A DNA stretch of 61,774 nucleotides from a virus: the IMG/VR virus record IMGVR_UViG_3300045988_126226, positions 131,035-192,808 of that record; one strand, given 5' to 3'. A program made the translations under genes and the position numbers. Positions 28,259 to 61,774 of this stretch are shown here, one piece after another. How positions within the stretch are numbered: the first letter of the stretch is position 1; every line of letters starts with the position of its first letter. Under the pieces are notes generated by a model that saw only the letters and a list, made by a program, of their open reading frames with translations, was not told the DNA's origin and did not search any database.

Positions 28259-28261
28259 AAG

Positions 28262-28492: not shown

Positions 28493-28494
28493 AT

Positions 28495-28638: not shown

Positions 28639-28901
28639 GGGTATAATGAATACATCAAATAAGAGAGGTAAACAAAATGATTTCTGATGCTCGTCCACCG
28701 CCTTAAAGACTGATTTGGTTTAGTAAAATGAATTGATTTATGATTATAGATAAAGGTAGGTATAAACAAGATGTATAGTAATAAACCTCGCGACCGCCCC
28801 CTAAAAAAATTGTAAAACCTATTGACAACCTGCTCCGCCTATGATATAATAACTACATCAAAGACAAGGACAGTCTTAAAAACCAGAAAGGAATTGATAC
28901 T

Positions 28902-29276
28902 ATGTCTACTTCTACTGTTAAGAAGCTCACCAAGCGCGACCGTTTCGAGGCTCTGCTCAAAATGAGCGAGGTTCAGGCGAATCCTGATATGGTGGCGTTC
29001 ATTGAGCATGAGATTGAACTGCTCGCCAAGAAGAACGCGGGCGATAAGAAGCCCACGGCCAAGCAGATGGAGAATGACGCCGTGAAGCAGGTCATTCTGG
29101 ACGAGATGACCGCAAACCCTGACAAGCTGTATACCGTGACCGACCTCATCAAGGGCGTTCCCGAGCTTGCGGAGTATACCAACCAGCGCGTTTCCGCTCT
29201 TCTGCGTCAGATGATTGATGCAGACACGGTTGTCAAGACGGTTGACAAGCGCAAGTCCTACTTCTCCCGCGCGTAA
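28902..29276 (+). CDS. paralog family protein A (124 aa)
   Basis: SD aaaggaa; about 70% identical to 31522..31899; distant paralog at 50327. Confidence 0.6.
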   Translation: MSTSTVKKLTKRDRFEALLKMSEVQANPDMVAFIEHEIELLAKKNAGDKKPTAKQMENDAVKQVILDEMTANPDKLYTVTDLIKGVPELAEYTNQRVSALLRQMIDADTVVKTVDKRKSYFSRA

Positions 29277-29419
29277 GGGTAAAGGGCAGGGGATAAAAAA
29301 AATCCCCTGCCCCACAATAAAAAACTGTTGACAAACCAATAGCAAAGTGCTATACTATTATCAGAGGTTGAGAGAACGATGGTAAACCTCAATCTACTTT
29401 TCCAATAGGAGACGATAAA

Positions 29420-30196: not shown

Positions 30197-30274
30197 AAAA
30201 AAATAGGGAATGGGGCTTGACAAGTCCTATTCCCTATGGTATAATCAATGTATCAAATGAAAGAGGTGTTTTAC

Positions 30275-30553
30275 ATGACTGCTAAACAAGTCCTTTTTGT
30301 AGTCCCTGATGACAATGACCCTCACATGGGCATTTTAATCGACCATGACTATATTATCTGCGCCGAGTGCGGTGGCGTCTTTGAAGCTGACGAAGTTTTC
30401 ATTATTCAGATCTACGACTCTTGGGTAAACTTTGAAGATGAAATTGCGGACGAGCTTGACCTGCTGACCGCAAAAGACATTGGCAAGGAGCTGGATAGCA
30501 AGGAAAAGTTCGGCTGGGACGCGTGGAAAGAAGCCATTAAAGGGGAGTTCTGA
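30275..30553 (+). CDS. hypothetical protein with CxxC pair (92 aa)
   Basis: promoter cttgacaa..tataat, SD aagaggtg, TGA. Confidence 0.5.
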   Translation: MTAKQVLFVVPDDNDPHMGILIDHDYIICAECGGVFEADEVFIIQIYDSWVNFEDEIADELDLLTAKDIGKELDSKEKFGWDAWKEAIKGEF

Positions 30554-30555
30554 AA

Positions 30556-30648
30556 ATGGATTTGGATTTTACTTACATGACCAACGAAGAACTGGACGAA
30601 CTCATCGCTCAGATAAAGGAAGTCAAAGAAACCCGAGCGGAAAGCTGA
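30556..30648 (+). CDS. small acidic peptide (30 aa)
   Basis: ATG 3 nt after previous stop. Confidence 0.3.
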   Translation: MDLDFTYMTNEELDELIAQIKEVKETRAES

Positions 30649-30799
30649 AAGACTGACCTTTGGAGAAACGTTCAGCGGTCGGTTCAGAATTACGTCATGG
30701 AGTGTGGAATGATTGAACTCTTTACCGAGGACTACAATTCCACGCTGGACGCTGATTCTTTCCGTATTCCCGGCGAGATTAACCTGCTGGACTAAAATA

Positions 30800-31030
30800 A
30801 AAAACTGCCCAAAAATGGGCAGTTTTTTTTGTCTATTTTGCCTATTGACAAACGCGGATTTTTGTGATAAAATGGGCGGACCGCTGGCGCATGCGGCGGT
30901 CCGAATTTTTAATTATACCATGCCCCGCCAATTTTGTCAAGAGAAAAGCTGCACAAAAGTAAAGAAAATTTTTTCCCGTAATTTGGTTATTCTGTCAATT
31001 GTAATTTGTGGGCAATCTGCTATAATGAAT
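30800..31030 (+). promoter_or_regulatory. regulatory cassette F: terminator; P1 ttgaca(30845)-gtgataaaat; hairpin cggaccgc..gcggtccg (30875-30903); TGTCAAGAG (30935); P2 -10 tataat (31021)
   Basis: read directly. Confidence 0.55.
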
Positions 31031-31031
31031 A

Positions 31032-31175
31032 ATGTCAAGAGGGAAACCCCTGAGCCACAGGTCGGTGTGGGGCTACGGTTGGAAGTAGCAATAGACCGTT
31101 CACCTATTACGTTAAGGTCTCTTCGGAGCGGAACGCACGGGATAAAAGAAAAAATTCATGAGTTTTTTCTTGAAA
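31032..31175 (+). ncRNA. candidate sRNA 1 (starts AAUGUCAAGAGGGAAA; contains CUC-UUCG-GAG tetraloop hairpin)
   Basis: own promoter (-10 tataat 31021); no SD; only an 18-codon ORF ending in TAG; ends at -35 of next promoter. Confidence 0.45.
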
Positions 31176-31214
31176 ACCTCTTGACAAATCCCAGCGAGTG
31201 TGCTACAATAGAAA

Positions 31215-31440
31215 ATGTCAAGAGGGAGTAGCCCAAGAAATCCGAGGGCGCGCGACTTCGAGAAAGTACAGGAAGTAAACATAATATACCACGTTGTAAA
31301 GCCAAACGTTGAACGCGAAAGTGAGTTTGATTGAGCCAACTATACTCGAAGCGGTTTTCGCTGACAGATAGATTGAACCAACAAACAATAAATTATCCGT
31401 CAGGTCGGGGTAGTAATTCGTGTAAAAAGTTTGCGAAACC
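31215..31440 (+). ncRNA. candidate sRNA 2 (starts AAUGUCAAGAGGGAGU; shares CAGGUCGG motif with sRNA 1)
   Basis: own promoter ttgaca(31181)-N17-tacaat; no long ORF or SD; followed by promoter of 31522 gene. Confidence 0.45.
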
Positions 31441-31521
31441 TCTTGACAAGCACTCTAAAATGTGGTATACTCAATATATCAAAAGGGTAGCGACCTACCG
31501 CCAAAGAAAGGAATTGATACT

Positions 31522-31899
31522 ATGTCTACTTCTACTGTTAAGAAGCTCACCAAGCGCGACCGTTTCGAGGCTCTGCTCAAACTGTCCGAAGTTCAGGCTG
31601 ACCCCGCCATGGTTGAGTTTATCAATCACGAGATTGACCTGTTGGCTCGCAAGAACGCGGGAGACAAGAAGCCCACGGCGAATCAGATTGCCAACGACGG
31701 CTACAAGGACATTATCTTTGCTGAGCTGTCCGCGAATCCCGACAAGCTGTATACCGTGACCGAACTCATCAAGAACGTGGACGGTCTGGGTGACCTCACC
31801 AATCAGCGCGTTTCCGCTCTTTTGCGTCAGATGATTGACGCGAACGGCGTCGAGAAGATTGTGGACAAGCGCAAGTCCTACTTCCGTCTCGCGCGCTGA
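31522..31899 (+). CDS. paralog family protein B (125 aa)
   Basis: promoter cttgacaa(31443)..tatact, SD aaaggaa, TGA, strong terminator 31903-31935. Confidence 0.6.
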   Translation: MSTSTVKKLTKRDRFEALLKLSEVQADPAMVEFINHEIDLLARKNAGDKKPTANQIANDGYKDIIFAELSANPDKLYTVTELIKNVDGLGDLTNQRVSALLRQMIDANGVEKIVDKRKSYFRLAR

Positions 31900-31999
31900 T
31901 TCAGGGGGAGCGCCTGAAAAAAATCAGGCGCTCCCAAAAATTTCTCTTGACATTTGCTGACGGCGGTGTTATAATCATACTTGAAAGGGGGCAAAAGAA

Positions 32000-32407
32000 A
32001 TGCCTAAAATGAGTGAAAAGGACTTTCAGGCAAAGATTGATAATCTAATGAAAAAATTAGATTGTACTGCCGAGGAAGCAAAAGAAATTCTCATGGACGA
32101 TGATGACATTGACCATGGAATCGCCAAGGACTTTGACCTGTCCGCGGAAAAGCTCAAAGAAGCTAACAAGTATTCTAAGACCGGAACACGCAAAGCGCCG
32201 ACCGCTTATAAATTCGAGAAGCGACAGCGCAAGGAAAACCCCACAAAACGCTCGATTATCGCTGAACTTGCGACTTTTTTGCGTGAAAACAGCGAAAATG
32301 CGTGCGAAAATGTGGAAATTACGAATGTGGAGCGCATGATTGCGTTCCATGTGGGCGAAAATGACTACGAATTGACCCTGATTCAGAAGCGAAAGCCCAA
32401 AAACTGA
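32000..32407 (+). CDS. hypothetical protein (135 aa)
   Basis: promoter ttgacat..tataat, SD aaaggggg, TGA, terminator 32412-32452. Confidence 0.55.
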   Translation: MPKMSEKDFQAKIDNLMKKLDCTAEEAKEILMDDDDIDHGIAKDFDLSAEKLKEANKYSKTGTRKAPTAYKFEKRQRKENPTKRSIIAELATFLRENSENACENVEITNVERMIAFHVGENDYELTLIQKRKPKN

Positions 32408-32525
32408 TGAAAAAGGGTGAAAAACCGCTGAAAAATGCGGTTTTTCACCCAAAAACAAGTCAAAAAATGCAAAAAAATAATGGTTGAAAGAACGATGGTA
32501 AACCTCAATCAATAGAGAGGATTTT

Positions 32526-32942
32526 GTGCGAATGGAAGAAATTACTATTAAGCTACGCCGATTTAAGGACGGCAGACCGCCCGTTTCAATGGAGTTTATG
32601 CCCGATTGTGGCGAGAATCTGAAAGACGTTCAAGCGGTTTATTTCTTCAAGTTTTACAACAACAACAAACTTGAATTTAACAAGGTAGGCACTTCCGCAA
32701 AAGACGTTGTAGGGCGCTTACGTGATGAAATCGGCGAATACTCGAAAAAGTATTCTATCACTCGCGTTGAGATTCACCGAATCCGTTCTTGTGGGGACTA
32801 TCCCGCCGAGGGTGCGGAATCGGCATTGCGTGCGGAACTGATTAGACGCTACCCCAAAGCGTTTAGAAAGAATGACCGCTTTTTCAATGTGGACATTAAC
32901 CCCACGGTTTTCGATGAAATTGTAAACGCATTTCTTGCATAA
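32526..32942 (+). CDS. hypothetical protein (136-138 aa; GTG 32526 or ATG 32532)
   Basis: SD agagagga; preceded by conserved leader stem-loop; TAA; terminator 32950-32985. Confidence 0.5.
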   Translation: MRMEEITIKLRRFKDGRPPVSMEFMPDCGENLKDVQAVYFFKFYNNNKLEFNKVGTSAKDVVGRLRDEIGEYSKKYSITRVEIHRIRSCGDYPAEGAESALRAELIRRYPKAFRKNDRFFNVDINPTVFDEIVNAFLA

Positions 32943-32949
32943 ATATTCA

Positions 32950-33062
32950 ATCAGCAGGTTGACTAAAACCTGCTGATTTTTTTTGTGTATTTTGCCTATT
33001 GACACCGATCGGAAAATGTGGTATAATGGCCGGGCCGGGGTGGGACGTCCCGGCCCGATTTC
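32950..33062 (+). promoter_or_regulatory. regulatory cassette G: terminator; P1 ttgaca(32998)-tggtataat; GC hairpin 33028-33057; followed by ~270 bp non-coding with CCATATG inverted repeat
   Basis: read directly. Confidence 0.5.
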
Positions 33063-33336
33063 CCGATCGGTATACCCATATGCAAAATTTCTCATACTTC
33101 TAGCACCTCTCCATATGGCCCAAAAAAATCCCGAAAATTGACTTTTTATAAAAAATATGTTATAATGATAAAAAAAGACTTTTTTAAGCCCGCGTAGGAT
33201 CATATGCCTTTATAATTAATTAAAAATTGCTTCGCCCTTACATTGTTTCACGCGTATGTTTTCGTCCAAAAAAATCTTGACATTTTTAAAAAAAAAGTAT
33301 ATAATATATATAGAAAATAAGAAAAGAGGTATTCAT

Positions 33337-33714
33337 ATGGATATGAATGATATTATTGCTCGTCTAAAAAATGGTGAGGACGCTCAGGCTATTGCGGACG
33401 AAATGGCTAAGTCTCTGAATGATGCGGTTAAGCAAGTGGAGAAGGAAACTAAGCAGGCCGATCGGAAGACCGCGCTCGCGCAGGAAATCGCTGATCGGAT
33501 TAACGAGTATGCCGCTCTTAATGGCTGCAAGGATTCCGCGTTGACCGCGTCTGATGTGGAGAATATCTTTGCTGAGGTTTACGGTCTTATGACCGGGGTT
33601 ACCGATCTTCTTGACGCGCTTTTTCCCAAGAGTGAGAAGGTAAAGGTTAAGAAGGTCAAGAGAACTGATGATGATGTAATTGCCGAATTTTTGAATACTT
33701 TCATCAATAAGTGA
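33337..33714 (+). CDS. hypothetical helical protein (125 aa), first gene behind middle-type promoter
   Basis: promoter cttgacattttt..tatataat, SD aagaggt, TGA, terminator agagagac..gtctctc-T8. Confidence 0.55.
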   Translation: MDMNDIIARLKNGEDAQAIADEMAKSLNDAVKQVEKETKQADRKTALAQEIADRINEYAALNGCKDSALTASDVENIFAEVYGLMTGVTDLLDALFPKSEKVKVKKVKRTDDDVIAEFLNTFINK

Positions 33715-34011
33715 ACAATGTGTAGGGTGAGATATTTTTCATCCTAAGAATCGACAATTTCACCAAGAATTGCCTAATATGAAAAAAGAGAGACTGAAAA
33801 AAGTCTCTCTTTTTTTTAGGTCCGGAGATCGGAGACGGGAAAATGTGGTTGGTGGTTTAGTTAAACCGATCGACACCACATTTCCGCAATTTCCGCAATT
33901 TCTACGATTTCTACGATTTTTATCATCTTTTATTACTCTACATCTTCCAATTCCGAACCATCCATTAATTTAATCACTATCCAAAAGCGAATCAACCAAT
34001 ATAGGTCTATT

Positions 34012-35095: not shown

Positions 35096-35752
35096 ATTTA
35101 GAGGGGTTGTGCAATAAATTTAACAAACTAAATGAAATATTTACTCTATTACATTTGTTAACCAATCAAGTCTATAAATAGTTTTTACATTCTCAAATGA
35201 ATCATTCTCTTGCTAAAAAGTAGATAATGAATATTTAATTAAACCAATTTTTCCTAATACATATAAAATATTTATAATTATATCATTATTACTTCTTGTA
35301 GTAGTGCAAATACCAATATGAGCTTTAATACTATCTAAAGTAAACTGATAGGGTTTACATCCTTGTCTATAATATTCATTCAATAAATAAACATAAGCTG
35401 AAATACAATTTTCACTTAAAGTGTCAGTAAGTAATTTTAAAGTATTATAAGGAATCAATGAAGCGTAATCTTTATCTAATTTAATTAAAGAATAAGTATT
35501 TTTATCTACTTCAATAATTAATCCTAATTCTTTTAAATTCTTAAATTTAGTAGAAATAGTCTAACGAGTTAATCCAAATTTTTCACCTAATTTGCTAAAA
35601 TTAATATCTTTCTTATAAAATAATCTTTCACCAGTCATTTCATTAAGAACAGACACCTATTGTAAATAAGCATAAAGGATATCATAATATTTTTTATTAG
35701 AACAAATATCTATAGTTTTTGGAACCTATCTTGAATTCTTCTATATATCCAT
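35096..35752 (-). CDS. winged-helix/HTH DNA-binding protein, candidate iteron-binding replication initiator (218 aa, 5 TAG)
   Basis: HTH segment LGEKFGLTR-Q-TISTKFKNLKELGLI; ORF 35213..35458 extended both ways through TAG; adjacent to iteron array. Confidence 0.45.
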
Positions 35753-40197: not shown

Positions 40198-40356
40198 ATG
40201 AAAACTAAAAATAGTAGAATTGAAATTAGATTGCCTGAATAGATTAAAAATCAATTTCAGCTTTTAGCGAATAAAAAAAATACTACTATGAGCGCTATCT
40301 TATTAGAATACATTTTATTTTTACTAAGAAAAGAAGGTAATGAAAATGGGATATAA
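40198..40356 (+). CDS. ribbon-helix-helix (Arc/CopG-like) DNA-binding protein (52 aa, 1 TAG)
   Basis: SD gaggtg; beta-strand RIEIRLPE-Q-IKNQFQ followed by helices; overlaps start of endonuclease gene. Confidence 0.45.
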
Positions 40357-41269
40357 AATTGATATGACTGGATAGAAATTCGGTCGTTGGACTGTCATAG
40401 GTTTTGATTGTAATAAAAATAGACGAACTATGTGGAAGTGTAGATGCGATTGTGGCACTGAAAGAAGTGTTGAAGGAGCTCGTTTGAGAGGTGGTCGATC
40501 AAAATCTTGCGGATGCCTTTTAAGAGAAAGCACAGCATTACGTAGTCGTAAAGACATAACAAATTAGAGGTTTGGTCGATTAGTTGCTTTATATCCAACC
40601 GAAGAGCGTCAAGGTGGAAAAATTATTTGGTTATGTAAATGCGATTGTGGTAATGAAGTAAAAGTCCCAATAGATAGATTAACTGGAAAAAATACTTAGT
40701 CTTGTGGTTGTTTATCGAAAGAAAAAACAAGTGAAAGATTTTGTATTGATTTAACGGGATAGATATTTGGAAAATTAACTGTAATAAAAAGAGATAATAC
40801 TAAAAACTATAAACGAGTGCGTTGGCTTTGTAAATGTTCTTGCGGAAATTCAGAATTAGAATCTGTTGATGGCTATTATTTAAGGTCAGGAGAAAAAACT
40901 CAATGTTCTAAATGTGTTCCTAAGTCAAAAGGAGAAGAACAAATAAAAAATATTTTAATTAAAAATAATATTTCTTTCACACAAGAAAAAAGTTTTGATG
41001 ATTGTCGTTTTCCTAAAACTAATAGACTTGCTCGTTTTGATTTTTATATAGATAATAAATATTTAATAGAATTTGATGGAAGATAGCATATTTAGAATAC
41101 CAGTAAATGGAACAGTGAATGGAATTTAGAATATGTTTAGGAGCATGATTAGATAAAAAATAATTATTGTAAAGAACATAATATTCCTTTAATTAGAATT
41201 CCATACAGTAAAATTAATTATATCAAGCTTGAAGATCTTTTATTAGAAACTTCTAAATATAAAATATAA
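40346..41269 (+). CDS. multi-repeat Zn-ribbon / PD-(D/E)XK homing-endonuclease-like protein (307 aa, ~9 TAG)
   Basis: three repeats of G[KR]W..C[KR]C.CGN..(n)..SCGCL plus C-terminal FDFYIDNKYLIEFDGR-Q-HI Vsr/DUF559-like domain; open only with TAG as sense. Confidence 0.5.
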
Positions 41270-50236: not shown

Positions 50237-50326
50237 AAAAAATAATATATAATATTTATGTAAGGTAAAGGAAGAAATACTTCCTAAAAATAAAATTGTT
50301 ATTTATGAAAGGTTAAGGTAAAAATT

Positions 50327-50743
50327 ATGACTAATGAAGTTAAGGTTTCTAAGCGCGACTATCTGACCGCGATTATCGGAGCTATGCACACTGGTGAGAT
50401 CAAGTATGATCCCAACGACGTGATCGCATTTTGCGAGCATGAGATTGAGTTGCTTGATAAGAAGACTGCCAAGGCTAAGGAGCGTGCGGCCGCCAAGCGC
50501 GCTGAGGGTGATGAGCTGACCGAGCAGATTTATGACGTTCTTTCTGGCGATGAGTTTATGACCATCCCTGAGATCGTCAAGGCTCTCGGCGATGAGGATG
50601 TCTCTGCGCAGAAGGCAAGTTATCGACTTCGCACTCTTGTGAGCGAGAATCGTGCGGAGAAGACTGAGGTCTCTGTGCCGGGCGCTGATGGCGGTAAGGC
50701 CAGCAAGAAAGTGGCTTATCGTAAGGTCGCTTTTGAGGGCTGA
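50327..50743 (+). CDS. paralog family protein C (138 aa)
   Basis: distant paralog of 28902/31522 (shared FxEHEIELLxKK core); Rho-independent terminator after. Confidence 0.55.
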   Translation: MTNEVKVSKRDYLTAIIGAMHTGEIKYDPNDVIAFCEHEIELLDKKTAKAKERAAAKRAEGDELTEQIYDVLSGDEFMTIPEIVKALGDEDVSAQKASYRLRTLVSENRAEKTEVSVPGADGGKASKKVAYRKVAFEG

Positions 50744-50914
50744 GAATTAAATGATTAAATGGACTGAAAAATTTTCAGTCCATTTTTTCTTGTTATCTGC
50801 TCCGACCGGTGCTGGCCGCATACACCGAAAGTCCAAAAGTAAAAAGCCGTTTAGAATTTTCTTGACAAAATTGGAGTTTTTTGTTATAATTATATTATAA
50901 AGGAGTGATATAAT

Positions 50915-51715
50915 TTGAAATATTGTGTTTCCGTGCGTCAACCTGATGTTGTCCGCGAGAAAGCTGATGAGCTTATGGTTAATTATAATGATATAAACAT
51001 TATGTATGATATGATTTAGAAATTCCCCAATAAGCGATATATTATCAGAATCCGCAAAAACGAAGAAGTGAATTGGGAAGAGATTGACTCCTTTAAGGAT
51101 AAAGTCGATCTTATTGTAGCATTTGAAGATATGCTTACTCGTAATGGGTGTAATATTGATGTAAAGTATTATTTCGCTTATCCTGCTACTACATGGGCGG
51201 AAGTCCGCGTTCTCCTTGATCTTAAAGTTAGCGAACTTTTCATCGGGGCACCGCTTACGTTTGATTTAAAACAATTAAATCAGCAAGCAAAAGTTCCAAT
51301 TCGTATGATTGCGAATAAATGCTATGACGATAACCTTCCAAGAGAAAATGGAATATGCGGCTCCTACGTCCGACCGGAAGATGTAGATTATTATGGAACA
51401 TATGTTTCAACGTTAGAATTCGATGAACCCGCACTCTCTAAGGAAGCCGTGCTTTTGGATATCTACCAAAGCGGTCATTGGCAAGGTAATCTAAACCTTT
51501 TATTAACTAATTTAAATTATAATGCGGATAATCGTGGAATTCCCGAAGATTTTGGCCCTAACCGCATTAATTGCGGTCAGCGCTGTCAACGACAAGGTAC
51601 TTGCCACTATTGTGAAACCGCGTTTATATTCTCTCGTGTTATAGATAAAGCAGTTCAAGCAAGCAAGCAGAATAATCCTATCTCCGAGGCGGAAGAGGAG
51701 TCAATTGACAAATAA
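50915..51715 (+). CDS. hypothetical protein (up to 266 aa if TTG 50915 and TAG readthrough; 215 aa if GTG 51068)
   Basis: SD aaaggagtg before TTG; C-terminal CGQRCQRQGTCHYCE motif. Confidence 0.4.
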
Positions 51716-51766
51716 AAAAAATAATGTTATAATATAAATATAAGATAAAAGATAGGAGAATAAACT

Positions 51767-52873
51767 GTGAGAGGTTTTAAAACTAATGAACTTTGGTTAT
51801 TTGAATATCTGGTTCGCTCGACGCAAGATGAGTTAAGAGAATATGTTGCCGATGTATTGAAAGCTAAATACACTCAAGTAATTGATACTAAAGAGTATGT
51901 TTGCGCGGTTGGGGATATTCCAATCGCATTAGTGGCTCATCTTGATACGGTGTTTGAGAAGCCGGTCAAAGATTTATATTATGATACAAGAAAAAATGTG
52001 CTTTGGTCTCCGGATGGGCTTGGCGCGGATGATAGAGCGGGAGTATATGCGATTCTTCATATTTTGAGAAATACACCTTTGCGCCCTTCTATTATTTTCA
52101 CTACCGATGAAGAGCTTGGTGGATTAGGCGCCGAAGCATTAGTATTACAGTATTTTGATTGTCCGTTTCCTGATTTGAAATATATTATTCAATTAGATAG
52201 ACAAGGTACAAATGATTGTGTGTTTTATGATCTTTACAATCCTAAGTTTATGGATTACATTGAGTCTTTTGGATTTGTAGAGGATTTTGGCACGTTTAGC
52301 GATATTAGTATTTTATGTCCCGAATGGAAAATTTGTGGTGTAAATCTTTCAGTAGGTTATAAAAACGAACATAATCGTATTGAAACATTAAATGCGGGTG
52401 CTCTTTTTGACACAATTAATAAGGTAATCCGCATGCTCCAAGAAAAAGTTATCCCTGATTTTGAGTATTATCGTGATTACCATAGTGTTTGGTTCGATAA
52501 TATGTGTAAAAATTTCCCAACTGATGGCGATGGATTCTACGTTCATTGTAGAGGATGCGGTCAGTTATTTAGTGAATATGAAACATTTCCAGTAAAGGGA
52601 TTAGATGGACATACATGTTTTTATTGCCCTGATTGTATTCCCAGTAATGTTGAATGGTGTGCGGAGTGTGAAGAGGCATTTGAGATTGACCCTGCGAACC
52701 CACACAGCGAGTATTGTAAAGATTGTATTGGAGGATTAGTCAAATGTCATATGACTTCGACATCGAAAGCATTAGAGAACAGTTCAACAAAGTCATCAGT
52801 TACTCCCAAGGAATCAGTAATCCAAAAACAGAAGAACTATTCGAAAGATTCCTCGAAGCCAAAAAAGACTTAA
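51767..52873 (+). CDS. M20/M28/M42-type Zn metallopeptidase fused to C-terminal Zn-ribbon module (368 aa, GTG start)
   Basis: metal-ligand motifs AHLDTV, GADDRAGV, TTDEELGGLGA; C-terminal C..C..C..C pairs; last 130 nt overlap next gene. Confidence 0.55.
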   Translation: MRGFKTNELWLFEYLVRSTQDELREYVADVLKAKYTQVIDTKEYVCAVGDIPIALVAHLDTVFEKPVKDLYYDTRKNVLWSPDGLGADDRAGVYAILHILRNTPLRPSIIFTTDEELGGLGAEALVLQYFDCPFPDLKYIIQLDRQGTNDCVFYDLYNPKFMDYIESFGFVEDFGTFSDISILCPEWKICGVNLSVGYKNEHNRIETLNAGALFDTINKVIRMLQEKVIPDFEYYRDYHSVWFDNMCKNFPTDGDGFYVHCRGCGQLFSEYETFPVKGLDGHTCFYCPDCIPSNVEWCAECEEAFEIDPANPHSEYCKDCIGGLVKCHMTSTSKALENSSTKSSVTPKESVIQKQKNYSKDSSKPKKT

Positions 52874-54177
52874 TTAAATTTTTTCACGGTCATTTAATTT
52901 ATGAGTGGCCGGAAAAGGTATCTTTTTCCTTAGATGATAAAACTAAAGAGCATCGTCTTGAAGAGTTTCTTGAAACAATTAATTATACTTATAATAATGA
53001 AGATTTAAAAGATTTTATTTCAGTAAATAAAGAAGGATTCTTTAATAATACAGTTATAGATACTTATTTTTATAAGGATAAAAAGATTCCAAGAGGAATG
53101 AAATTAGTTAAGGCTTTTAAGTATTTTGAAGAGAATCCGCGCTCTTTGGAAGATATCCAAAATTACGCAAGTCGCATTATCCAAGAGGATAAGATTGAGG
53201 GAACATTATGTTTCTCAGTTCATCCTTTGGATTTTTTGAGCGTAAGTGAAAATACTTACAATTGGCGCTCTTGCCATGCGCTTGACGGCGAATATAGAGC
53301 AGGAAATTTATCCTACATGGTAGATAGAAGTACTTTTATTTGCTATTTGCGCGGAGCGGAGAATCAGAAACTTCCGCATTTCCCTGAAGATGTTCTTTGG
53401 AATTCTAAGAAATGGCGTATGCTTCTTTACATGGAAGATAAACGACGCGGTCTGATGGCTGGTCGTCAATATCCTTTTATGACAACCAATGCTTTAATTA
53501 AAATTAAAGATATTATCAATACTTTTGATAAGGCTTTTCAGCTGCGTGAATGGGTAGACGGAGGTATTACTACTGTCTCTAATAGGATGAGTAGCACTCC
53601 TTTTGGAGAAGAGACTATTGGATTATCTGAAACATGGATTCCTATTTTGTCTCGTTTATATCCTATTAGTGATATCGTTGAAGATATTGGTGAGCATACT
53701 CTTCAATATAATGATTTGCTTTATTCTTCTTGCTATTTGCCTATTTATAGTTTAAAATTGTATTATTATCCATTTGACAAGACTGATCTTCCTCATTGGT
53801 CTATTGGTGGTGATGTTCCTTGTTTACAATGCGGTAAAACTATAATTGAAAGTGGAGAATATATGCGATGCGGAGATTGTGAATTCAGTTATGGAGTAAA
53901 TGAAGACGATAACTATGGTTATTGCGCTTGTTGCGGTTCTCGTATAATCCTTGATGAAGCAAATTCCGTAGGCGATGAAAATGAATTGGTTTGCGATAGT
54001 TGTGCGGATACTTATTGTAAACGATGCGAATGTTGTAATAATTTATATTATACAGAAGATATTCACTATCATAAAGGAACTGATATGTATTTATGTCCTT
54101 GGTGCTTTAGAGATGCTGGTGAAGAAAAAGTTAATAATTTTAGGTCTTTAAAAGACTTTATACATAATTTTAGTTAA
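52744..54177 (+). CDS. large Cys-rich protein, paralog 2 (477 aa)
   Basis: ATG 52744 with SD ggagga; paralog of 48632..50236 over whole length. Confidence 0.6.
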   Translation: MSYDFDIESIREQFNKVISYSQGISNPKTEELFERFLEAKKDLIKFFHGHLIYEWPEKVSFSLDDKTKEHRLEEFLETINYTYNNEDLKDFISVNKEGFFNNTVIDTYFYKDKKIPRGMKLVKAFKYFEENPRSLEDIQNYASRIIQEDKIEGTLCFSVHPLDFLSVSENTYNWRSCHALDGEYRAGNLSYMVDRSTFICYLRGAENQKLPHFPEDVLWNSKKWRMLLYMEDKRRGLMAGRQYPFMTTNALIKIKDIINTFDKAFQLREWVDGGITTVSNRMSSTPFGEETIGLSETWIPILSRLYPISDIVEDIGEHTLQYNDLLYSSCYLPIYSLKLYYYPFDKTDLPHWSIGGDVPCLQCGKTIIESGEYMRCGDCEFSYGVNEDDNYGYCACCGSRIILDEANSVGDENELVCDSCADTYCKRCECCNNLYYTEDIHYHKGTDMYLCPWCFRDAGEEKVNNFRSLKDFIHNFS

Positions 54178-54258
54178 GGAGAATTATATATGGCTAAAGG
54201 TAAAAAATGATTAATCCTTTAGCCATAAAATTCTATTTCTATAAAGGGAGTTGATTTT

Positions 54259-54996
54259 ATGATTGATGAAACTGGAAATAGATACGGTAAATTAACTGTT
54301 ATAGAATATGTTAAAATTAAACAAAAAACCGGAAAAATAAAAGGTAAATGGAAATGTTAGTGTGATTGTGGAAATATTGCTTATTGTGATGGAGCAGATT
54401 TAAGAAGAGGACATTCTACTTCTTGCGGATGTTTATAGAAAGAAAAAAGTAAAAAAAGTGTTTTTATTGATTTAACTGGATAGCAATTTGGAGGTTTAGA
54501 AGTTTTAGAGAGAGATATGAATTATTAGGGACATGGCTCTAGGACTCATTGGATTTGTAAATGTCATTTTGCGGAAATATAAAGAGTATTGGAAGTTATG
54601 CTTTAAGAAAAGGCCAAGTTGTTTCTTGCGGATGCTAGCGATCTAAAGGCGAATTAAAAATTGCTAAAATGTTAAATGAAAATAATATAAAATTTGTTTA
54701 GGAATTCAAGTTTGAAGGTCATAAAAATAGACGTTTTGATTTTGCAATATTGGATGATAATAATAAAGTAATTCGTTTAATTGAATTTGATGGAATTCAG
54801 CATTATTATAAGCCTAGAGCAAATCATTGGAGTGCTAGTTCTACTTTAGAGGAAACATAGTAGAGAGATAAAGAAAAAAATAATTTAGCTAAATAGTATA
54901 ATATTCCATTAGTTAGAATACCTTATTGGGATATAGATAAATTTACTATAAAAGATTTGATAAATAATGATAAATTTTTAATTAAGGAGAATTAAA
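54259..54996 (+). pseudogene. frameshifted paralog of the 40346 Zn-ribbon/PD-(D/E)XK endonuclease (TAG-rich)
   Basis: N-terminal repeats and C-terminal RFDFAILDDNNKVIRLIEFDGI-Q-HYY domain both present, but need a frame change near 54566 (2-nt indel relative to copy 1) plus TAG readthrough. Confidence 0.45.
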
Positions 54997-54997
54997 T

Positions 54998-55306
54998 ATG
55001 GCAAGCAAAGGTGCAGTAGCTAAGGAACAAATTGCCAAGAAGATGGCAGAAACATTTGGCGCTGACTGGATCGGCGAGAGAGATAAAAAGTATTACCTTT
55101 GGGCTAATGAGAATGGCGAGCGAATTCAGATTGCTATTAGTATGACGTGTCCCAAGACCCCGGTCGGTGAAGCAGGCGCAACCGCGGATTCAAATGTTTT
55201 GAATTTTGAAGATGGGGCAACCGCAGGCGGAGAAACACAGGTTGAAATTACTGTGGATGAAAAGAAAAATGTCGCCGACCTAATGGCAAGATTGGGATTG
55301 AATTGA
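54998..55306 (+). CDS. hypothetical protein (102 aa)
   Basis: SD aaggagaa; TGA; clean terminator 55320-55345. Confidence 0.55.
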   Translation: MASKGAVAKEQIAKKMAETFGADWIGERDKKYYLWANENGERIQIAISMTCPKTPVGEAGATADSNVLNFEDGATAGGETQVEITVDEKKNVADLMARLGLN

Positions 55307-55424
55307 TTTAAAGAGTAATGTCATTTGACATTACTCTTTTTTATTTAACCAAATTAAATTAATGACTTACCTATAAATTTTTAAATTTTATAGAAATAAT
55401 AAAATTTATAAGGAGGTCATTTAA

Positions 55425-55976
55425 ATGGCAATTCCAAAAGCTATAGAACATATGCGTAGTGGAAGTGGTAGTTTAGAAATTATTCCAATTACTTCTACTG
55501 ATGGATTAACTTACACAGGAACCGCAAGATCTATTAAAGAATATAAAGACGGAATGATTATTGGCCTTATTCCAAATATGAATAACGTTGCAACAAATCC
55601 CATTACTAATATAACAATAAATATAAATGGATTAGGTCCTTTAAAATTAACTCAATATTTTATTAAAAAAGAGCACTCTAATAATGGATTAGGGTGTTGG
55701 CATTCAAATACTGCTGTAGAAGCAAATTTTTTATATAAAGATGAAGCTTTTATTGGTCAAATACAATTACAAGAATCTAATAATTATATTTTACCTATCA
55801 ACCCAGGATTAGATTTAACTTAGATTACTAATGGCTCTATGGGGTCTAATTTATCTATTACTGCTAATTCTTCTTATTTAAATAATAATATTTTAAGAAA
55901 TATTAAAATATCTACTTCCGCACCCACTTCTTCAGATGGAAATGTTGGAGATATTTGGATTTAGTATTTCACTTAA
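55425..55976 (+). CDS. late tail-associated protein (183 aa, 2 TAG)
   Basis: SD aaggaggt; frame open to TAA only with TAG as sense. Confidence 0.45.
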
Positions 55977-55992
55977 TAAAGGAGGGATTTAA

Positions 55993-57408
55993 ATGCCAAA
56001 TACTTATAATCCTTCTGGCACTTCTATAACTGACTATTCTTCTATTAAATTTATCCCAGGAGATACTATTAATGGTAGTTATTCGGGAGCAGTAAATCCA
56101 GTAAAGCTTCCCGCAGGAAATTATCAACTAGAGTGTTGGGGTGGTTATGGTGGAATCGGCTATTCTGGTTCTTTAACTTCATCAACAATGACTTCATGGA
56201 TATATATAGGAAGTGGTAATGCAACTAGCTATTTTAACATTAATAATGATTCAAATTATTATTTTCGTCAAGATGGAAATGATTGGATAGCTACTAATGG
56301 AGGAATAAATTCAAGTACTGCTACAACTACATTAACTTGTACTTCTGGAGGAACTTATAAATTTTCATATTATTATAAAACTGAAGCGGGCTATGATGAA
56401 GTCACTTTAATAGTTGGAGGAACTACAGTTTTAAATGCTGTTTCTGGATCAAGTTCTCTTACTACCACTGGTACTTACTCTTTATCGTCAGGATCTACTA
56501 TTGTAATGACTTACTCTAAAGACAATTCAAGTTCAGTAGATAATGAAGAAGTTTATTTTTAGATTCAAAAATAGGAAAGTAGTACCACTTATACTCCTGC
56601 GAGTTCAAAAAATAGTTATTGGGGTGGGACAGGGGGATATTCTACGGGTATTCTTTCTTTATCAACCCCAACTTCTATTTATTTGTATACAGGGGGGCAA
56701 GGTAATTATTCAAGCGATAGCGAAAAAGGCAAAACGGTTGATGGTGGATTTAATGGAGGAGGTAGCTCTAAAATTAGATGGTATACTTCTGCTTATAGTT
56801 CCGGCGGTGGTGGTGGTGGAGCTTCTGATATTCGTATTGGATCAGATTCTCTTTACGCTCGTGTAATCGTTGCTGGTGGTGGTGGTGGCGGAGCAGGAGA
56901 AAGTAAATCTTCTGTTAAACAAGGTGGTGGATTAACTGGTAATTCTGCTGTTGAAGAATATAAAGCTACATAGACTAAAGCTGGTACTAATGGATCATTT
57001 GGGTAGGGAGCTAATTCTACTGGTTCTGGTAATTATAATTATGGTCCTGGTGGCGGTGGTGGCGGCTGGTATGGCGGCGGTGCTTCTACTAATGTAAGCG
57101 ATGGATCTGCTGATTATAGAACTTATAACGGTGGTGGTTCTGGTTATGTATATACTTCATCAACTGCTTCTAATTATCCCTCTGGCTGTTTATTAAATAG
57201 TAATTATTATTTAACAAATGCTTCTACTACAATAGGATATAGTAAAACTAATCCAGGAGGAAAACATGGATATATTCGTATTACTGTATTATCACCATTA
57301 AATGTAAAAATTAATTCTAATACTTATGTCCCTATTAAAGCAATATATACAAAAATAGATAATACAACTTGGAAAGGAGGTATAACCACATGGCAACCTA
57401 TGACTTAA
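55993..57408 (+). CDS. Gly-rich fibre/receptor-binding-like protein 1 (471 aa, 4 TAG)
   Basis: SD aaaggaggg; ORFs 55993..56562 and 56683..56973 co-linear via TAG; GGGGGGA and NGG repeats; motif LPAGNYQLECWGGYGG; C-terminal HGYIRITV. Confidence 0.5.
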
Positions 57409-58691
57409 CTTCTTCAATTCCTTCTTCTTCTTTTTTAAAAACGGGAGATATATTAAATTGTCCTTATAGCGGAACATATAAATCTATTACTCTCCCAAAA
57501 GGTACTTATAAATTAGAATGTTGGGGTGCTTAGGGAGGAAATGGAACTGCTTCTCCTTCTAATAATTCTCAATTATTTGGAGGAAAAGGAGGTTATTCAT
57601 ATGGAGTTTTTTCTCCTACTTCAGATACAGTTTTATACCTTTATTCTGGAGGACAAGGGGCAACTGCGACTGATACTTCATCCGGCCCAAATGGAGGATA
57701 TAATGGAGGAGGAGCTGGCAGTAAAAATGGAGATAATAATTCTAATACTCAAACTTCAGGTGGAGGAGGAGGAGCAACACATATTGCGATTACTTCAGGA
57801 TTATTAAATACTTTGTCTTCTTCTACGGCTTCAATTTTACTCATAGCTGGTGGAGGAGGAGGAGCTGGAGGTTGGTATGGTTCTTTCTCAACTCAATCTA
57901 GTGATGGCGGATATGGAGGAGGAAATTCTGGAGGATCTGCAGCGAATGGAGGAGGATATTCCGTCTCAGGAGGAACTCAATCAAGTGGATACTCTTTTGG
58001 GCAAGGGGCTAGTGCTTCGACTCATGTAGACCAAGGAGGTGGCGGAGGAGGATATTATGGAGGATATTGTTCCACTGGCACTTCAGATAGTAATATTTGT
58101 GGAGGAGGCGGGGGTTCTGGATATATAAATACTTCAAAACTTACTTCTGCTTCCACAATAGCTGGTAATACTTCATTTACATCTCCAACAGGGACAACTG
58201 AAACCGGACACAGCGGAAATGGATATATAAGAATTACTATTTAGTCTATTGTTAACTGGGCTTATTCTACTATATCAATATCTGCTCCTACTTATAATAA
58301 ATAGAATACTTCTTCTTGGACTTTGACTCCAAGTGCTTGTCGTTATTTTTCTTTTACCCCTACTATTTCAGGAGATTTTATTGTTTATTCTAATTCTTCA
58401 ATAGATACTTATGGTTATTTAACATCAAGTATTACTTCTCTTAATAATAGTGGATCGCCTTCTTCTAATATTTTAGCTAGTAGTGATGATTCCGCAAGAA
58501 AATATGGTGGATCTGGATATAATTTTGGTATTTGTTATAAAGTTACTGCCGGAACTACTTATCATATATTCGTTAAACCTTATAGCGATTCTACTACAGG
58601 TTCAGTATACTTAACTTATTATATGGCTCATCCTGATAGTAGAGTATATGTAAAAATAAATAACACTACATGGAAACTAATAACGAATTAA
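57390..58691 (+). CDS. Gly-rich fibre/receptor-binding-like protein 2 (433 aa, 3 TAG), paralog of previous
   Basis: SD ggaaaggagg; motifs LPKGTYKLECWGAQGG, LYSGGQG, NGYIRITI; includes ORFs 57813..58244 and 58323..58691 in one frame. Confidence 0.5.
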
Positions 58692-58770
58692 AAAATTTTT
58701 TGACATTTTTAAAAAAATAATATATAATATATTTATAAAATAAAGAAAGACCTTTACAGCAAAAATAACT

Positions 58771-58841
58771 TCCAGAATAGACTAAAGGTTAGGTCATAAT
58801 CATTTAAGATTAAGTTAATGGTTCAAATCCATTTTCCGGAC
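58771..58841 (+). ncRNA. tRNA-like element with non-canonical 6-nt anticodon loop
   Basis: acceptor 6/7 bp, D arm with GG, perfect T arm aatgg-ttcaaat-ccatt; anticodon stem taatc/gatta closes a 6-nt loop ATTTAA; needs tRNAscan/Infernal. Confidence 0.25.
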
Positions 58842-58863
58842 AAAGTTAAGGTCTTGTTTATAC

Positions 58864-58948
58864 AAGGGGGTCGCATAGCGGCGATTGCATCGGTCTCCAA
58901 AACCGACGGTTAATACCCACCAGGGTTCGAGTCCCTGCCCTCTTGCCA
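58864..58948 (+). tRNA. tRNA with anticodon CCA (Trp-type) but long variable arm
   Basis: acceptor aaggggg/ccctctt, G73, anticodon arm tcggt-CUCCAAA-accga, variable hairpin ggt-taat-acc, T arm caggg-ttcgagt-ccctg, encoded CCA. Confidence 0.6.
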
Positions 58949-59028
58949 AAACATTTACTTTGGAGGTCGAATTTATATAATTATATAAAAATAAATTTTA
59001 TATAATTATGAAAGGTAGATGTTTAATT

Positions 59029-59775
59029 ATGATAGGAATTTATAAAATTACAAATAAAGTAAATAATCATTGTTATATTGGATAGTCAATAAATATTTAT
59101 GATAGATGGAAGCATGAAAAAAGTGATGCTTTTCGTGAATAGAGTAAAAGTTATGATTATCCTCTTTCACGAGCATTAAGAAAATATGGAGTAGAGAATT
59201 TTACTTTTGAAATTTTAGAAGAATGTTCTCGTGAAGATTTAAATAAAAAAGAAATTGAATATGTTAAAAAATTTAATAGCTATAATGATGGATATAATTA
59301 GACATTAGGTGGCGATGGAACCAAGGGGTTTCAAATAAAATTATCTAATGAAGATATTTATGAAATATATAAATTACTATTAAATGAAGAAATTACTCAA
59401 AATGATATAGCAAAAAAATATGGCGTTGGGATAGATACCATATCAGAAATAAATCATGGGAAAACTAGAATATTAGATGGTTTTACATTTCCTTTAAGAG
59501 ATAATAGAAAAATTCATTTTTGTGTTGATTGCGGAAAAGAAATTTATCGTAGCTCTATAAGATGTAAAGATTGTGATTCAAAAAATTAGAGAAAAGTAGA
59601 ACGTCCTTCTCGTGATATTTTCAAATCTGAAATTAGAAATATTTCTTTTTTACAATTAGGTCATAAATATGGAGTTAGTGATAAATCAATATCTAAATGG
59701 TGTAAATATTATAATTTACCTAGTAAAAAATCAGATATAAAGAAAATTTCTGATGAAGATTGGAAGAATATTTAA
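59029..59775 (+). CDS. GIY-YIG homing endonuclease, I-TevI-like with Zn finger (248 aa, 4 TAG)
   Basis: N-terminus MIGIYKITNKVNNHCYIG-TAG-S (GIY...YIG); DRW; CVDCG..CKDC zinc finger; SD aaagg. Confidence 0.6.
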
Positions 59776-59861
59776 TTTATTTAAACAAAAGAACTTTTTT
59801 GATTTTATTAAAAATATATAATATAATATATATAGAAAGTTGAGAAAGGAGAAAATAAATA

Positions 59862-60044
59862 ATGAATATTGAAGTTGGTAATTCTTATTGTTTTGTCCCT
59901 TATCGCGGTCGTTGTTATCGTAGACAGTATCTTAAATGTACTGTCATTCGAGTATTAAATTATCAGATTGAAGTCCTTGATGAGCATGGTGAAAAATGGC
60001 TTCTTTCAGAAGATGATTTAATGCCAATTCAAAGACCTTATTGA
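59862..60044 (+). CDS. hypothetical small protein (60 aa)
   Basis: middle-type promoter; SD aaaggag; TGA. Confidence 0.5.
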   Translation: MNIEVGNSYCFVPYRGRCYRRQYLKCTVIRVLNYQIEVLDEHGEKWLLSEDDLMPIQRPY

Positions 60045-60197
60045 CATTTTATAAAAAATATTATATAATATTTATATAAGATGAAGAAAGAAAAAAGAAA
60101 ATAAAAAAACTTGGGTAAAAGAGAAAAGTTGATTTTTTAAAAAAAATATAATATAATAAATATATAAAGTAAGGATTTTAAAAAGTCCTTCTTTTAT

Positions 60198-60743
60198 GGG
60201 AGATTAGCTCAGCTGGTCAGAGCATTCGGCTGTTTACTTGACCTTATCATTTTCTTATAAAAAAATGAAATGAATAGTAAACAAAAAGGTAATATTACCG
60301 AGCTTGAAACAATGTTAGCATTTATGAAACTTGGTTATAATGTTCTTACTCCTTACGGAGATTGTGAGCGTTATGATTTTGTGGTTGATGTAAATGGTAA
60401 ATTTATTAGAATTCAAGCTAAAACATCGCGAACTGAAGATGATGGAGCTTCTTTTGCTTTTTCAGGTAGAAGTTCTCACAGGAAAGATGGAAAGATAGTT
60501 CATCATCAATATACTAACGAAGAAATTGATTACTTCGTAACTACTTTTAATGGAAAATGTTATTTGATTCCAGTGGAAGAGTGCGGAGCAGATAAAAGAC
60601 TTCGTATTCTTCCGCCTAAAAACAATCAAGTAAGAGGTATTACTTGGGCGAAAGATTATGAGTTGGAGGAAGTAGTAAGAAAATGGTAAGCTGATGTGTA
60701 AGCAACCGAAGTGCCATAGGTTCGAATCCTATATTTCCCGCCA
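60198..60743 (+). tRNA. tRNA gene split by a 469-bp intervening sequence (exons ~60198-60233 and ~60703-60743); anticodon after splicing depends on junction (GUC/Asp if group-I-like U|...G| junction)
   Basis: 5' half gggagat-ta-gctc-agctggtca-gagc-a-ttcgg; 3' half ccgaa-gtgcc-atagg-ttcgaat-cctat-atttccc-g-cca pairs perfectly with 5' acceptor and anticodon stem. Confidence 0.55.
60270..60689 (+). CDS. PD-(D/E)XK-type endonuclease encoded inside the tRNA intervening sequence (139 aa)
   Basis: motif YDFVVDVNGKFIRIQAK (D..D..QxK); occupies nearly the whole insertion; analogous to intron-encoded PD-(D/E)XK homing endonucleases of tRNA group I introns. Confidence 0.5.
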   Translation: MNSKQKGNITELETMLAFMKLGYNVLTPYGDCERYDFVVDVNGKFIRIQAKTSRTEDDGASFAFSGRSSHRKDGKIVHHQYTNEEIDYFVTTFNGKCYLIPVEECGADKRLRILPPKNNQVRGITWAKDYELEEVVRKW

Positions 60744-60983
60744 TTGGGGCGTTAACACGGATTTTGTAAGTTTAAACTACCACCGATCGAAAGAGTATGT
60801 GGCTTGCGGAAAACGCCCGACTAAATATAAGGAAGCGAAGTAAAACTTATTGTGAAGTAGTGGCTATACTCACATTAATCAAGGCTAAGGGTTCTGGGGA
60901 TCCAAAAGAGTAAAAGTTGGTTCGAGTCCTAACGATTGACGAAGTTCGAATCTTCGCGATGTGGGTTATAAAACTCTTTATTT

Positions 60984-61068
60984 GCCGAATTGGTGGAATG
61001 GTAGACATAGCAGAATTAGACTCTGCCGCCTTAAAGGTGTAAGAGTTCGAGTCTCTTATTCGGCACCA
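60984..61068 (+). tRNA. tRNA-Leu (anticodon UAG), class II
   Basis: acceptor gccgaat/attcggc, A73, CCA encoded, 3-bp D stem, anticodon arm gcaga-AUUAGAC-tctgc, long variable arm, T arm aagag-ttcgagt-ctctt. Confidence 0.65.
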
Positions 61069-61155
61069 GTCCCTCCCTGGGAATGCGTTAAAGGCTTGCG
61101 AACTTTGAACGCAGGTGGTTGGCGACTCCATCTATACATAAATAAGTCGCATTTC

Positions 61156-61231
61156 GGGCTTCGGGACTGCATGGCGTGGTCGTCTGTCTTGCACACAGAA
61201 AATCAGGTGAGTTCGATTCTCACGAGGTCCA
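61156..61231 (+). tRNA. tRNA-Ala (anticodon UGC)
   Basis: acceptor gggcttc/gaggtcc with G3:U70, A73; D stem gact/ggtc; anticodon arm tctgt-CUUGCAC-acaga; T arm gtgag-ttcgatt-ctcac; no CCA encoded. Confidence 0.6.
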
Positions 61232-61704
61232 GTCATCTAAAATTCACAACCGCCACGAGGTAGATGATGGGTAACGCTAATAGTGAATAGAAATGGTTAT
61301 ATGGTGTAAAGTGTAAGCACGGCGGTTAAGTAAACCGCAAGTTTGGGAGCATTGCCCAATATAACCGATTATATGACGATTATATGATTGGTGATAAAAG
61401 CAGCCAGAAATATTATCTTATTAATTAAACTTAATACAATATACTAAATGATATAATAGATAAGGTATATTAATAAAACTTATATATAATAAGATAATAT
61501 ATACAAAATGCTAATAGTGATTTTGGTTTCAGCGCTAAGAAAGTTTTTCCCACTAAGAAGAGAAAATTTGAGTAGTTAGCGTAGTCTTGATAATTATATC
61601 TTAAATAATTATCCCTTTTTGGCTCATAACCTTTTTTTGGATAAAAAATTATATTATATTTACCGTGATGCCGCGGAGGGACGGCCGCCCTAAAGTGCGA
61701 TTAA

Positions 61705-61774
61705 GATTAGAAAGAAGTTGGAAGATCTTCTTAAAACTTCCATTAGATTAGAAAGAAGTTGGAAGATCTTCTTA
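61705..61774. repeat. 29-bp direct repeat GATTAGAAAGAAGTTGGAAGATCTTCTTA x2 separated by 12 bp, at window edge
   Basis: read directly; contains palindrome AAGATCTT. Confidence 0.7.

Follow-up and report, generated by a model that had tools for sequence, protein, structure and literature searches.

How can a phage make a homing endonuclease from a gene that carries a stop codon directly after its first conserved motif? This question is raised by a free-standing GIY-YIG homing-endonuclease gene at positions 59029–59775 (+ strand) of a 61,774-nucleotide stretch of viral DNA, positions 131,035 to 192,808 of IMG/VR virus record IMGVR_UViG_3300045988_126226, which we refer to as the window. The gene has 248 codons, four of them in-frame TAGs, and ends with a TAA stop at 59773–59775. 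An earlier inspection of the letters alone (the sequence-only reading) had proposed that one TAG sits at the conserved glutamine of the GIY-YIG motif and that TAG is decoded as Gln and not, for example, as Trp or Tyr. Our analysis supports that proposal, mainly through a tally of TAG sites over the whole window and less through the GIY-YIG site: the window very probably belongs to a large gut phage with genetic code 15, in which UAG specifies glutamine in packaging, virion and endonuclease genes and a CUA tRNA of a phage-encoded array is the likely decoder.

The GIY-YIG gene is intact across its TAG codons

The open reading frame (ORF) begins ATG ATA GGA ATT TAT and continues to TAT ATT GGA TAG TCA, so that the start of the endonuclease as previously transcribed, MIGIYKITNKVNNHCYIG-TAG-S, matches the sequence exactly; a possible further start ATG lies upstream at 59008. 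The four TAGs, all on the + strand, occupy codon 19 (59083–59085), directly after Y16-I17-G18, codon 38 (59140–59142) in a variable, indel-prone stretch, codon 91 (59299–59301) after G-Y-N, and codon 187 (59587–59589) in a variable column. Under the standard code the ORF is split into five pieces. Nevertheless, even with the TAGs masked as X the translation scores 32.3 bits (cut-off 22.6; E 1.3e-7) against Pfam GIY-YIG (PF01541), the profile comparison that the sequence-only reading had suggested, and the I-TevI catalytic domain (1mk0) is matched too, at E 2e-6.

A protein-database search with the endonuclease returned 874 homologs, the best 120 of which (~245–255 residues, 48–98% identity) were aligned over their full length, spanning all four TAGs; homologs at 50–59% identity are among those that do so. 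G3, I4, Y5, Y16, G18, R26, E75 and N90 are invariant in this 121-sequence alignment, and the residues equivalent to catalytic Y6, Y17, R27, E75 and N90 of I-TevI are all present (Y5, Y16, R26, E75 and N90). The histidine of the RWxxH motif is displaced (RWKHE), as it is in a subset of the homologs. In the C-terminal region four conserved cysteines (C165, C168, C179 and C182) suggest a zinc ribbon, and there is a helix-turn-helix (HTH)-like stretch whose matches to Trp_repressor (21.5 bits) and HTH_3 (21 bits) fall under the Pfam thresholds. The gene with its four TAGs is 100% identical in an independent European Nucleotide Archive (ENA) assembly (contig L302), and all four TAGs are also kept in two IMG/VR contigs (L253 and L254) at 98.4% identity; they are therefore not sequencing errors. 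Since the domain is recognized with the TAGs masked and the homologs align across all four of them, the gene is intact across its TAGs.

Codon 19 lies on a conserved glutamine column

In the protein alignment the codon-19 column holds Q in 120 of 120 homologs. We rejected this count as sufficient proof, for it is partly circular: some database entries were themselves translated with TAG as Q, among them P0012, whose gene has TAG at this very position. P0003 (on contig L005) has CAG there and no TAG anywhere in its gene. The circularity was avoided by reading the codons directly in 160 homolog DNA loci (IMG/VR and GTDB genome contigs) by tblastn. Opposite codon 19, the 157 matches carry CAA (75), CAG (20), TAG (32), AAA or AAG (16), a Leu codon (7) or others (7). 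When only the 94 matches without an in-frame stop are considered, the column is Gln in 74 (79%; 55 CAA and 19 CAG), Lys in 10 (11%), Leu in 4 (4%) and Ser in 1%, which confirms that codon 19 sits on a conserved Gln column. Homologs from recoded phages have TAG 32 times, CAA 20 times and CAG once at this position, and the 32 divergent matches that read YIG-TAG represent 29 distinct sequences.

The expectation behind the original proposal, that YIG is mostly followed by Q or S, stands in part. It is borne out in this subfamily, with its 79% Gln, and in I-TevI, which has Ser in this column after YVG; it does not extend to the superfamily, as further GIY-YIG genes of the fetched loci have Lys after the glycine (YVGKT or YIGKT). 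By itself, the GIY-YIG site is correct but modest evidence for TAG as Gln, because Gln leads in no more than 4 of the 245 columns that could be evaluated (19, 124, 143 and 200, of which 19 is the most conserved) and the chance that one of four TAGs would hit the codon-19 column is about 0.02–0.06.

TAG and glutamine codons are equivalent in alignments across the window

When TAG is read as sense, the window contains 25 well-formed ORFs with 106 in-frame TAGs and not a single in-frame TAA or TGA; all 25 terminate with TAA or TGA, at lengths that match their homologs. All 25 proteins were aligned with those of 80 loci centred on the large terminase gene terL (66–98% terL identity) and of four GenBank relatives. 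At the 74 TAG sites covered by the alignments, codons in the relatives are TAG (1324), CAA (1187), CAG (452), GAA (194) and AAA (124), and TAA and TGA are essentially absent among aligned positions. Leaving TAG aside, the residue in the majority is Gln at 43 of 70 sites, Glu at 6, Met at 5 and Lys at 4. Thus the tally that had been proposed for terL, portal and the endonucleases, here widened to the other ORFs, is led by glutamine, and no other residue predominates.

Three further comparisons agree with this. First, we derived substitution profiles from the same alignments and scored the residues found opposite TAG with all 20 amino acids in turn as its meaning. Gln comes out highest in log likelihood, both when the data are pooled (−5905; next best Glu, −10697) and for L001 (−114.5, next best −153.8), L002 (−134.6, next best −144.9), L003 (−38.3, next best −41.6) and L004 (−118.8, next best −135.2) taken singly. 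Second, relatives without any in-frame TAG have Gln at 36–38 of 59–60 window TAG sites, a fraction of 0.60–0.63 that compares with 0.52–0.56 opposite window CAA and CAG codons and with 0–0.06 opposite window Glu, Lys, Trp, Tyr, Ser or Leu; in L001, L002 and L003 the two fractions are likewise equal, at lower identity. Third, in the reverse direction the relatives' TAGs fall on window Gln at 5.0%, versus at most 0.5% on any other residue. Taken together, TAG and Gln codons are equivalent in the alignments. TAG makes up 36% of the putative Gln codons in the TAG-containing ORFs, where CAG is depleted (35, versus 154 CAA) relative to the TAG-free ORFs (40 CAG and 38 CAA); the depletion fits CAG-to-TAG transitions, with regional base composition as a confounder of the comparison.

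If TAG were instead a normal stop, the GIY-YIG gene and the other TAG-containing ORFs would be pseudogenes or split genes. The five-piece GIY-YIG ORF is what such a view predicts, and the GenBank annotation does fragment the equivalent genes of phage phAss-1. However, every one of the 106 interruptions is a TAG, with no TAA, TGA or frameshift among them, even in the essential terL and portal genes, where the tblastn alignments continue through the TAGs; moreover the TAGs are kept in independent assemblies, and among relatives they are exchanged with CAA or CAG at the same sites. We regard decay or splitting of these genes as virtually inconceivable.

It is also extremely improbable that UAG stands for Glu, Lys or pyrrolysine. 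Glu and Lys are the next commonest residues opposite TAG, and Lys is second at the position after YIG, but taken as a whole the residues opposite TAG are those of a Gln position, including the Glu, Lys and Arg that commonly substitute for Gln, and the likelihood gap to Glu amounts to 39 nats in L001 alone and to ~4800 pooled. As to pyrrolysine, ARAGORN labels the CUA tRNAs of these phages 'Pyl'; that label comes from the anticodon alone, the 90-nt CUA tRNA described below folds into a normal cloverleaf whose variable arm is long, and the proteins scanned yielded no pyrrolysine machinery.

Several observations weigh against the glutamine assignment or its proposed decoder. The majority residue is other than Gln at 27 of the 70 sites, and alignments reveal the ancestral or tolerated residue rather than the one actually inserted. 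Within the GIY-YIG gene, all TAGs but the one at codon 19 fall in variable columns, with Gln first or second commonest at two of the three: at codon 91 it is the commonest residue among the close homologs (67 of 120) and second among the stop-free matches, and at codon 187 it has a plurality among the close homologs (38 of 120). The division into early and late genes is made by module identity only, and most TAG-free ORFs lack a functional match. Finally, ARAGORN and Infernal, run at permissive thresholds, found no CUA tRNA in the window, and in a crude pairwise alignment the bodies of three CUA tRNAs of this lineage are nearer to tRNA-Trp (CCA) than to tRNA-Gln.

The tRNA array and the decoder of UAG

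The GIY-YIG gene lies inside a tRNA array that is preceded by a sigma-70 promoter with a perfect consensus match (TTGACA-17-TATAAT, 12/12; 58700–58728, + strand). The first gene of the array (58771–58841, +; Infernal 42.7 bits) resembles a tRNA, pairs U1 with A72 and has an anticodon loop of six nucleotides, AUUUAA. It is followed by a tRNA-Trp (CCA) of 85 nt at 58864–58948 (+), which adjoins the GIY-YIG gene, has a long, type-II-like variable arm, carries G73 and encodes its own CCA end, by a tRNA-Leu (UAG anticodon) at 60984–61068 (+) and by a tRNA-Ala (UGC) at 61156–61231 (+), the last called by ARAGORN with weak Infernal support; the array runs on past the window end.

Contig L302, which comes from a 193-kb scaffold (scaffold_27 of ENA assembly ERZ28660502), is 99.97% identical to the window over 50273–61705 (11.4 kb) and shows how the array continues: 19 tRNAs onward to a 90-nt CUA tRNA at L302 20063–20152 (56 bits), a position equivalent to ~8.6 kb beyond the window end. 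An identical 90-nt CUA tRNA is present in the 98% relative L256. This tRNA has U1 opposite U72, G73, G10, the anticodon loop CUCUAAA and a long variable arm. A CUA tRNA thus exists in a near-identical genome, and as the window itself holds none, the decoder tRNA is taken from that contig. We infer that this tRNA would be loaded with glutamine by the host machinery, since glutaminyl-tRNA synthetase (GlnRS) relies chiefly on U35.

Close relatives have a CUA tRNA at the same locus (L256 20628–20717; L301 20102–20174; L302 20063–20152; L303 20007–20079; L304 19426–19498), and in all of them this locus is followed by one and the same conserved ribozyme-like sequence. The CUA tRNA bodies at the locus are of three unrelated kinds, one 90 nt long and two, distinct from each other, 73 nt long, a pattern that suggests cassette-wise replacement of the suppressor tRNA.

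Two alternatives bear on what reads UAG and how. It is very improbable that UAG means Trp, or Gln and Trp ambiguously. The resemblance of the three CUA tRNA bodies to tRNA-Trp (CCA) points that way; in addition the two anticodon arms, GGUCUCUAAAACC and GGUCUCCAAAACC, are one base apart (C35-to-U), and the long-arm tRNA-Trp (CCA) adjoins the GIY-YIG gene. An attempt to assign the isotype of the CUA tRNAs by such pairwise similarity was abandoned, with low scores that are ambiguous between Trp-like and Gln-like; in the same crude comparison the CUA tRNAs of L113 and L298 resemble tRNA-Gln. A Trp-like body is no argument for Trp, since the classical tRNA-Trp-derived amber suppressor receives Gln, U35 being central to GlnRS recognition (PMC9976931), and since Trp is all but absent from the alignments: of 3019 residues opposite TAG in all relatives pooled, 1 is Trp and 50 are Tyr, although TGG and TAG are a single transition apart. 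In each standard-code relative, over 50–60 sites, Trp or Tyr occurs 0–2 times and Trp 0–1 times.

The other alternative names a different decoder. The tRNA at 58771–58841 could act as an ochre-type suppressor (UUA) that reads UAG by wobble, with UAA still terminating through RF2. It is the only stop-reading candidate inside the window, its U1:A72 is as in tRNA-Gln, and its anticodon would be UUA if U33 and A37 are kept; it is always first in the array, downstream of the perfect promoter, and all close relatives retain it. All copies seen, however, have an anticodon loop of six nucleotides (AUUUAA, CUUUAA or CUUCAA), which implies an abnormal decoding geometry. With U33 and A37 kept, the anticodons in these loops are UUA or UCA, which correspond to stop codons. 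Contig _126669 has the CUUCAA loop (UCA or UUC), while that phage is still TAG-recoded and has no in-frame TGA. A canonical CUA tRNA is present in the same genomes, and we consider decoding by the 58771 tRNA improbable.

HDV-like ribozyme matches

Directly 3' of the CUA tRNA, L302 20153–20207 matches a hepatitis delta virus (HDV)-like ribozyme at 27.7 bits, below the gathering threshold of 44, and the copy of this ribozyme-like sequence behind the CUA tRNA is nearly invariant across relatives. The window has an HDV-like (theta-type) match of its own at 61232–61290 (+; RF02682, 28.5 bits versus the same gathering threshold of 44), directly after the tRNA at 61156–61231. RF02682 models the Faecalibacterium prausnitzii HDV family and is not a theta model. 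Theta ribozymes are located behind phage suppressor tRNAs (PMC10879173), and the present matches resemble them in that, both in the window and in L302, they start with the base that immediately follows a tRNA; unlike them, both matches fall below the Rfam gathering threshold and are predictions from sequence. A sub-threshold twister-P1 match (41 bits; gathering 67) was seen at L302 13942–13992, outside the window and inside the tRNA array.

Mobility of nuclease genes in the array

The segment 58870–59769, which contains the tRNA-Trp and the GIY-YIG gene, is present in L253, L254 and L302 and absent or replaced in L249–L252, L255 and L256, and some near-identical genomes have an ordinary tRNA-Trp of 73–75 nt at the place of the long-arm one. 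Such presence and absence of a tRNA-Trp and GIY-YIG cassette is the behaviour expected of a mobile homing-endonuclease gene. In L005, a similar long-arm tRNA-Trp (9823–9908) stands ahead of a GIY-YIG homolog.

A tRNA lies within 1 kb of 29 of 35 full-length homologs versus 17 of 125 domain-only homologs. CUA tRNAs adjoin GIY-YIG homologs in L007, L089, L091 and L113; the tRNAs near homologs are of many kinds, and we rejected a specific link of this endonuclease family to suppressor tRNAs in favour of an association with tRNA arrays generally.

A PD-(D/E)XK endonuclease gene at 60270–60689 (+; PF11645, E 5e-32; no TAG) is a second mobile nuclease gene in the array, because window positions 60224–60708 are missing from L251, L253 and L254 and mostly missing from L249. 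A second perfect sigma-70 promoter stands ahead of this gene, at 60041–60069.

A more far-reaching view, which we consider unlikely, is that the TAG at codon 19, which lies 18 codons into the catalytic core, is a selected safety catch and more than a neutral synonym: the array endonucleases would be untranslatable until the suppressor tRNA of their own array is active. Endonuclease-driven gene conversion would also carry tRNA cassettes from one co-infecting phage to another, among them Trp (CCA) and suppressor (CUA) tRNAs one anticodon base apart, and would thereby help the spread and turnover of code 15. Hints come from the codon counts in recoded homologs, the 29 YIG-TAG sequences, the CUA tRNAs that abut homologs and the exchange of tRNA bodies at the ribozyme; the codon-19 counts are raw ones that ignore phylogeny and base composition, and the placement of the family beside tRNAs of all kinds, not specially suppressors, speaks against the idea.

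Phage lineage and distribution of TAG codons

The terminase large subunit (TerL) is 60% identical to that of a faecal contig without annotation and shares 44–47% identity with the terminases of the Enterococcus phages VRE9_4, H1 and EF1, of Geobacillus virus E3 and of phage phAss-1, the last classed by NCBI in the "Caudoviricetes code 15 clade". A megablast search with window 6000–16000 found no match among GenBank phages. The lineage is abundant in IMG/VR and ENA assemblies, and recoded and non-recoded members are mixed in the family at 66–98% terL identity.

The TAG-containing ORFs lie mainly in two blocks, 1–17132 (−) and 54259–59775 (+), with two more outside them, at 35141–35752 and 40340–41269, the latter endonuclease-like. 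The first block (1–17132, −) is a TAG-rich packaging and virion block whose ORFs ending inside the window stop at TAA or TGA. It includes terL (13101–14840, −; 7 TAGs), the portal gene (11069–12631, −; 9 TAGs) and between them a small endonuclease-like ORF (12732–13088, −; 3 TAGs; weak DUF2726-like match), at the place where VRE9_4 has an annotated homing endonuclease. Three adjacent virion-module ORFs amid this block (6734–9455, −) are TAG-free: the putative major capsid gene (7414–8520, −; phrog_4088) and its two neighbours.

The second block, upstream of the array (54259–58691, +), comprises endonuclease-like ORFs and two Gly-rich proteins of ALK_LTK_GRD type (55993–57408 and 57390–58691, +; PF12810 in the precomputed annotation of relatives). 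The Gly-rich pair contains TAGs, is strongly variable among 98% relatives and is probably tail-fibre-like. The ORFs 54259–54582 and 54561–54995 overlap and resemble the halves of a single 245-residue ORF in L007 (16204–16941), which in turn resembles window ORF 40340–41269; the two-ORF state may reflect a frameshift.

The packaging, virion and endonuclease ORFs carry 14.2 TAGs per 1000 codons, while the long ORFs between 29 and 54 kb together with ORF 60270–60689 have none in 3270 codons. Recoding is thus concentrated in packaging, virion and endonuclease genes, and the others are TAG-free; searches of the TAG-free ORFs against Pfam and PHROGs gave mostly function-unassigned families. Window 18000–34000 has a G+C content of 40–46%, compared with 28–35% in the TAG-rich blocks, and contains only short ORFs on both strands; reading through TGA yields no long ORFs in this GC-richer middle region and so gave no sign of TGA recoding or a second code there. 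At the window end a ~32-nt direct repeat, GATTAGAAAGAAGTTGGAAGATCTTCTTA, occurs twice (61703–61774), and it is duplicated in relatives as well, where it appears as second blast matches.

Proposed mechanism and relation to known systems

The phage would have a genome of ~160–195 kb and belong to the terminase lineage of Enterococcus EF1, Geobacillus E3 and phAss-1. We propose that codon 19, one of the 106 TAGs, replaces the CAA or CAG found after YIG in standard-code homologs and is most likely read by the phage-encoded amber-suppressor (CUA) tRNA of the array starting at 58771, with a putative self-cleaving HDV-like ribozyme downstream of that tRNA. Without suppression the endonuclease would end after 18 residues, so that it and the virion proteins would be made only once the suppressor is active; suppression may in this way act as a timing or regulatory device. 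The host is likely a Bacillota bacterium, in which GlnRS may be replaced by a non-discriminating GluRS plus GatCAB.

Reassignment of TAG to Gln, with a tRNA-SUP-CTA, has been described in the related phAss-1 group (PMC10607447), is proven by proteomics in crAss-like phages (PMC9523058) and has been reported for further gut phages (bioRxiv 10.1101/2021.08.26.457843; PMC11210395). Like these code-15 phages, the present one has in-frame TAGs in terL, portal and virion genes and other genes that are TAG-free, TAG sites that align to Gln in standard-code relatives, and, going by the near-identical contig L302, probably a CUA tRNA in a large array. It differs from the phAss-1 or 'Phassvirus' group in lineage, in its larger genome (relatives' contigs reach ~197 kb) and in a suppressor that lies outside the window. 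The predicted phage suppressor shares the CUA anticodon with U35 with E. coli supE (tRNA-Gln CUA) and su7 (tRNA-Trp CUA, Gln-charged) (PMC9976931); unlike them it lacks an encoded CCA, and its variable arm is long.

The endonuclease resembles I-TevI in its N-terminal GIY-YIG domain with conserved Y5, Y16, R26, E75 and N90; unlike I-TevI, which has Ser rather than Gln after YVG, it has four TAGs in its gene and would be dependent on suppression. T4 SegB, a GIY-YIG enzyme encoded in the T4 tRNA gene cluster, is its closest known characterised analogue, as the window gene also sits inside a tRNA array; cleavage by the window endonuclease is predicted.

TAG-to-Gln decoding here is a new lineage of a published phenomenon, correct but ordinary, and does not change current understanding, because TAG-to-Gln reassignment, CUA suppressors and tRNA-linked ribozymes are already published for gut phages. 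In practice, the window needs translation table 15; otherwise terL, portal, tail proteins and endonucleases are annotated as fragments. The known code-15 phages gain a large lineage of Bacillota-type phages, and since recoded and non-recoded members coexist in this family, it offers a good natural series for following the replacement of CAG by TAG.

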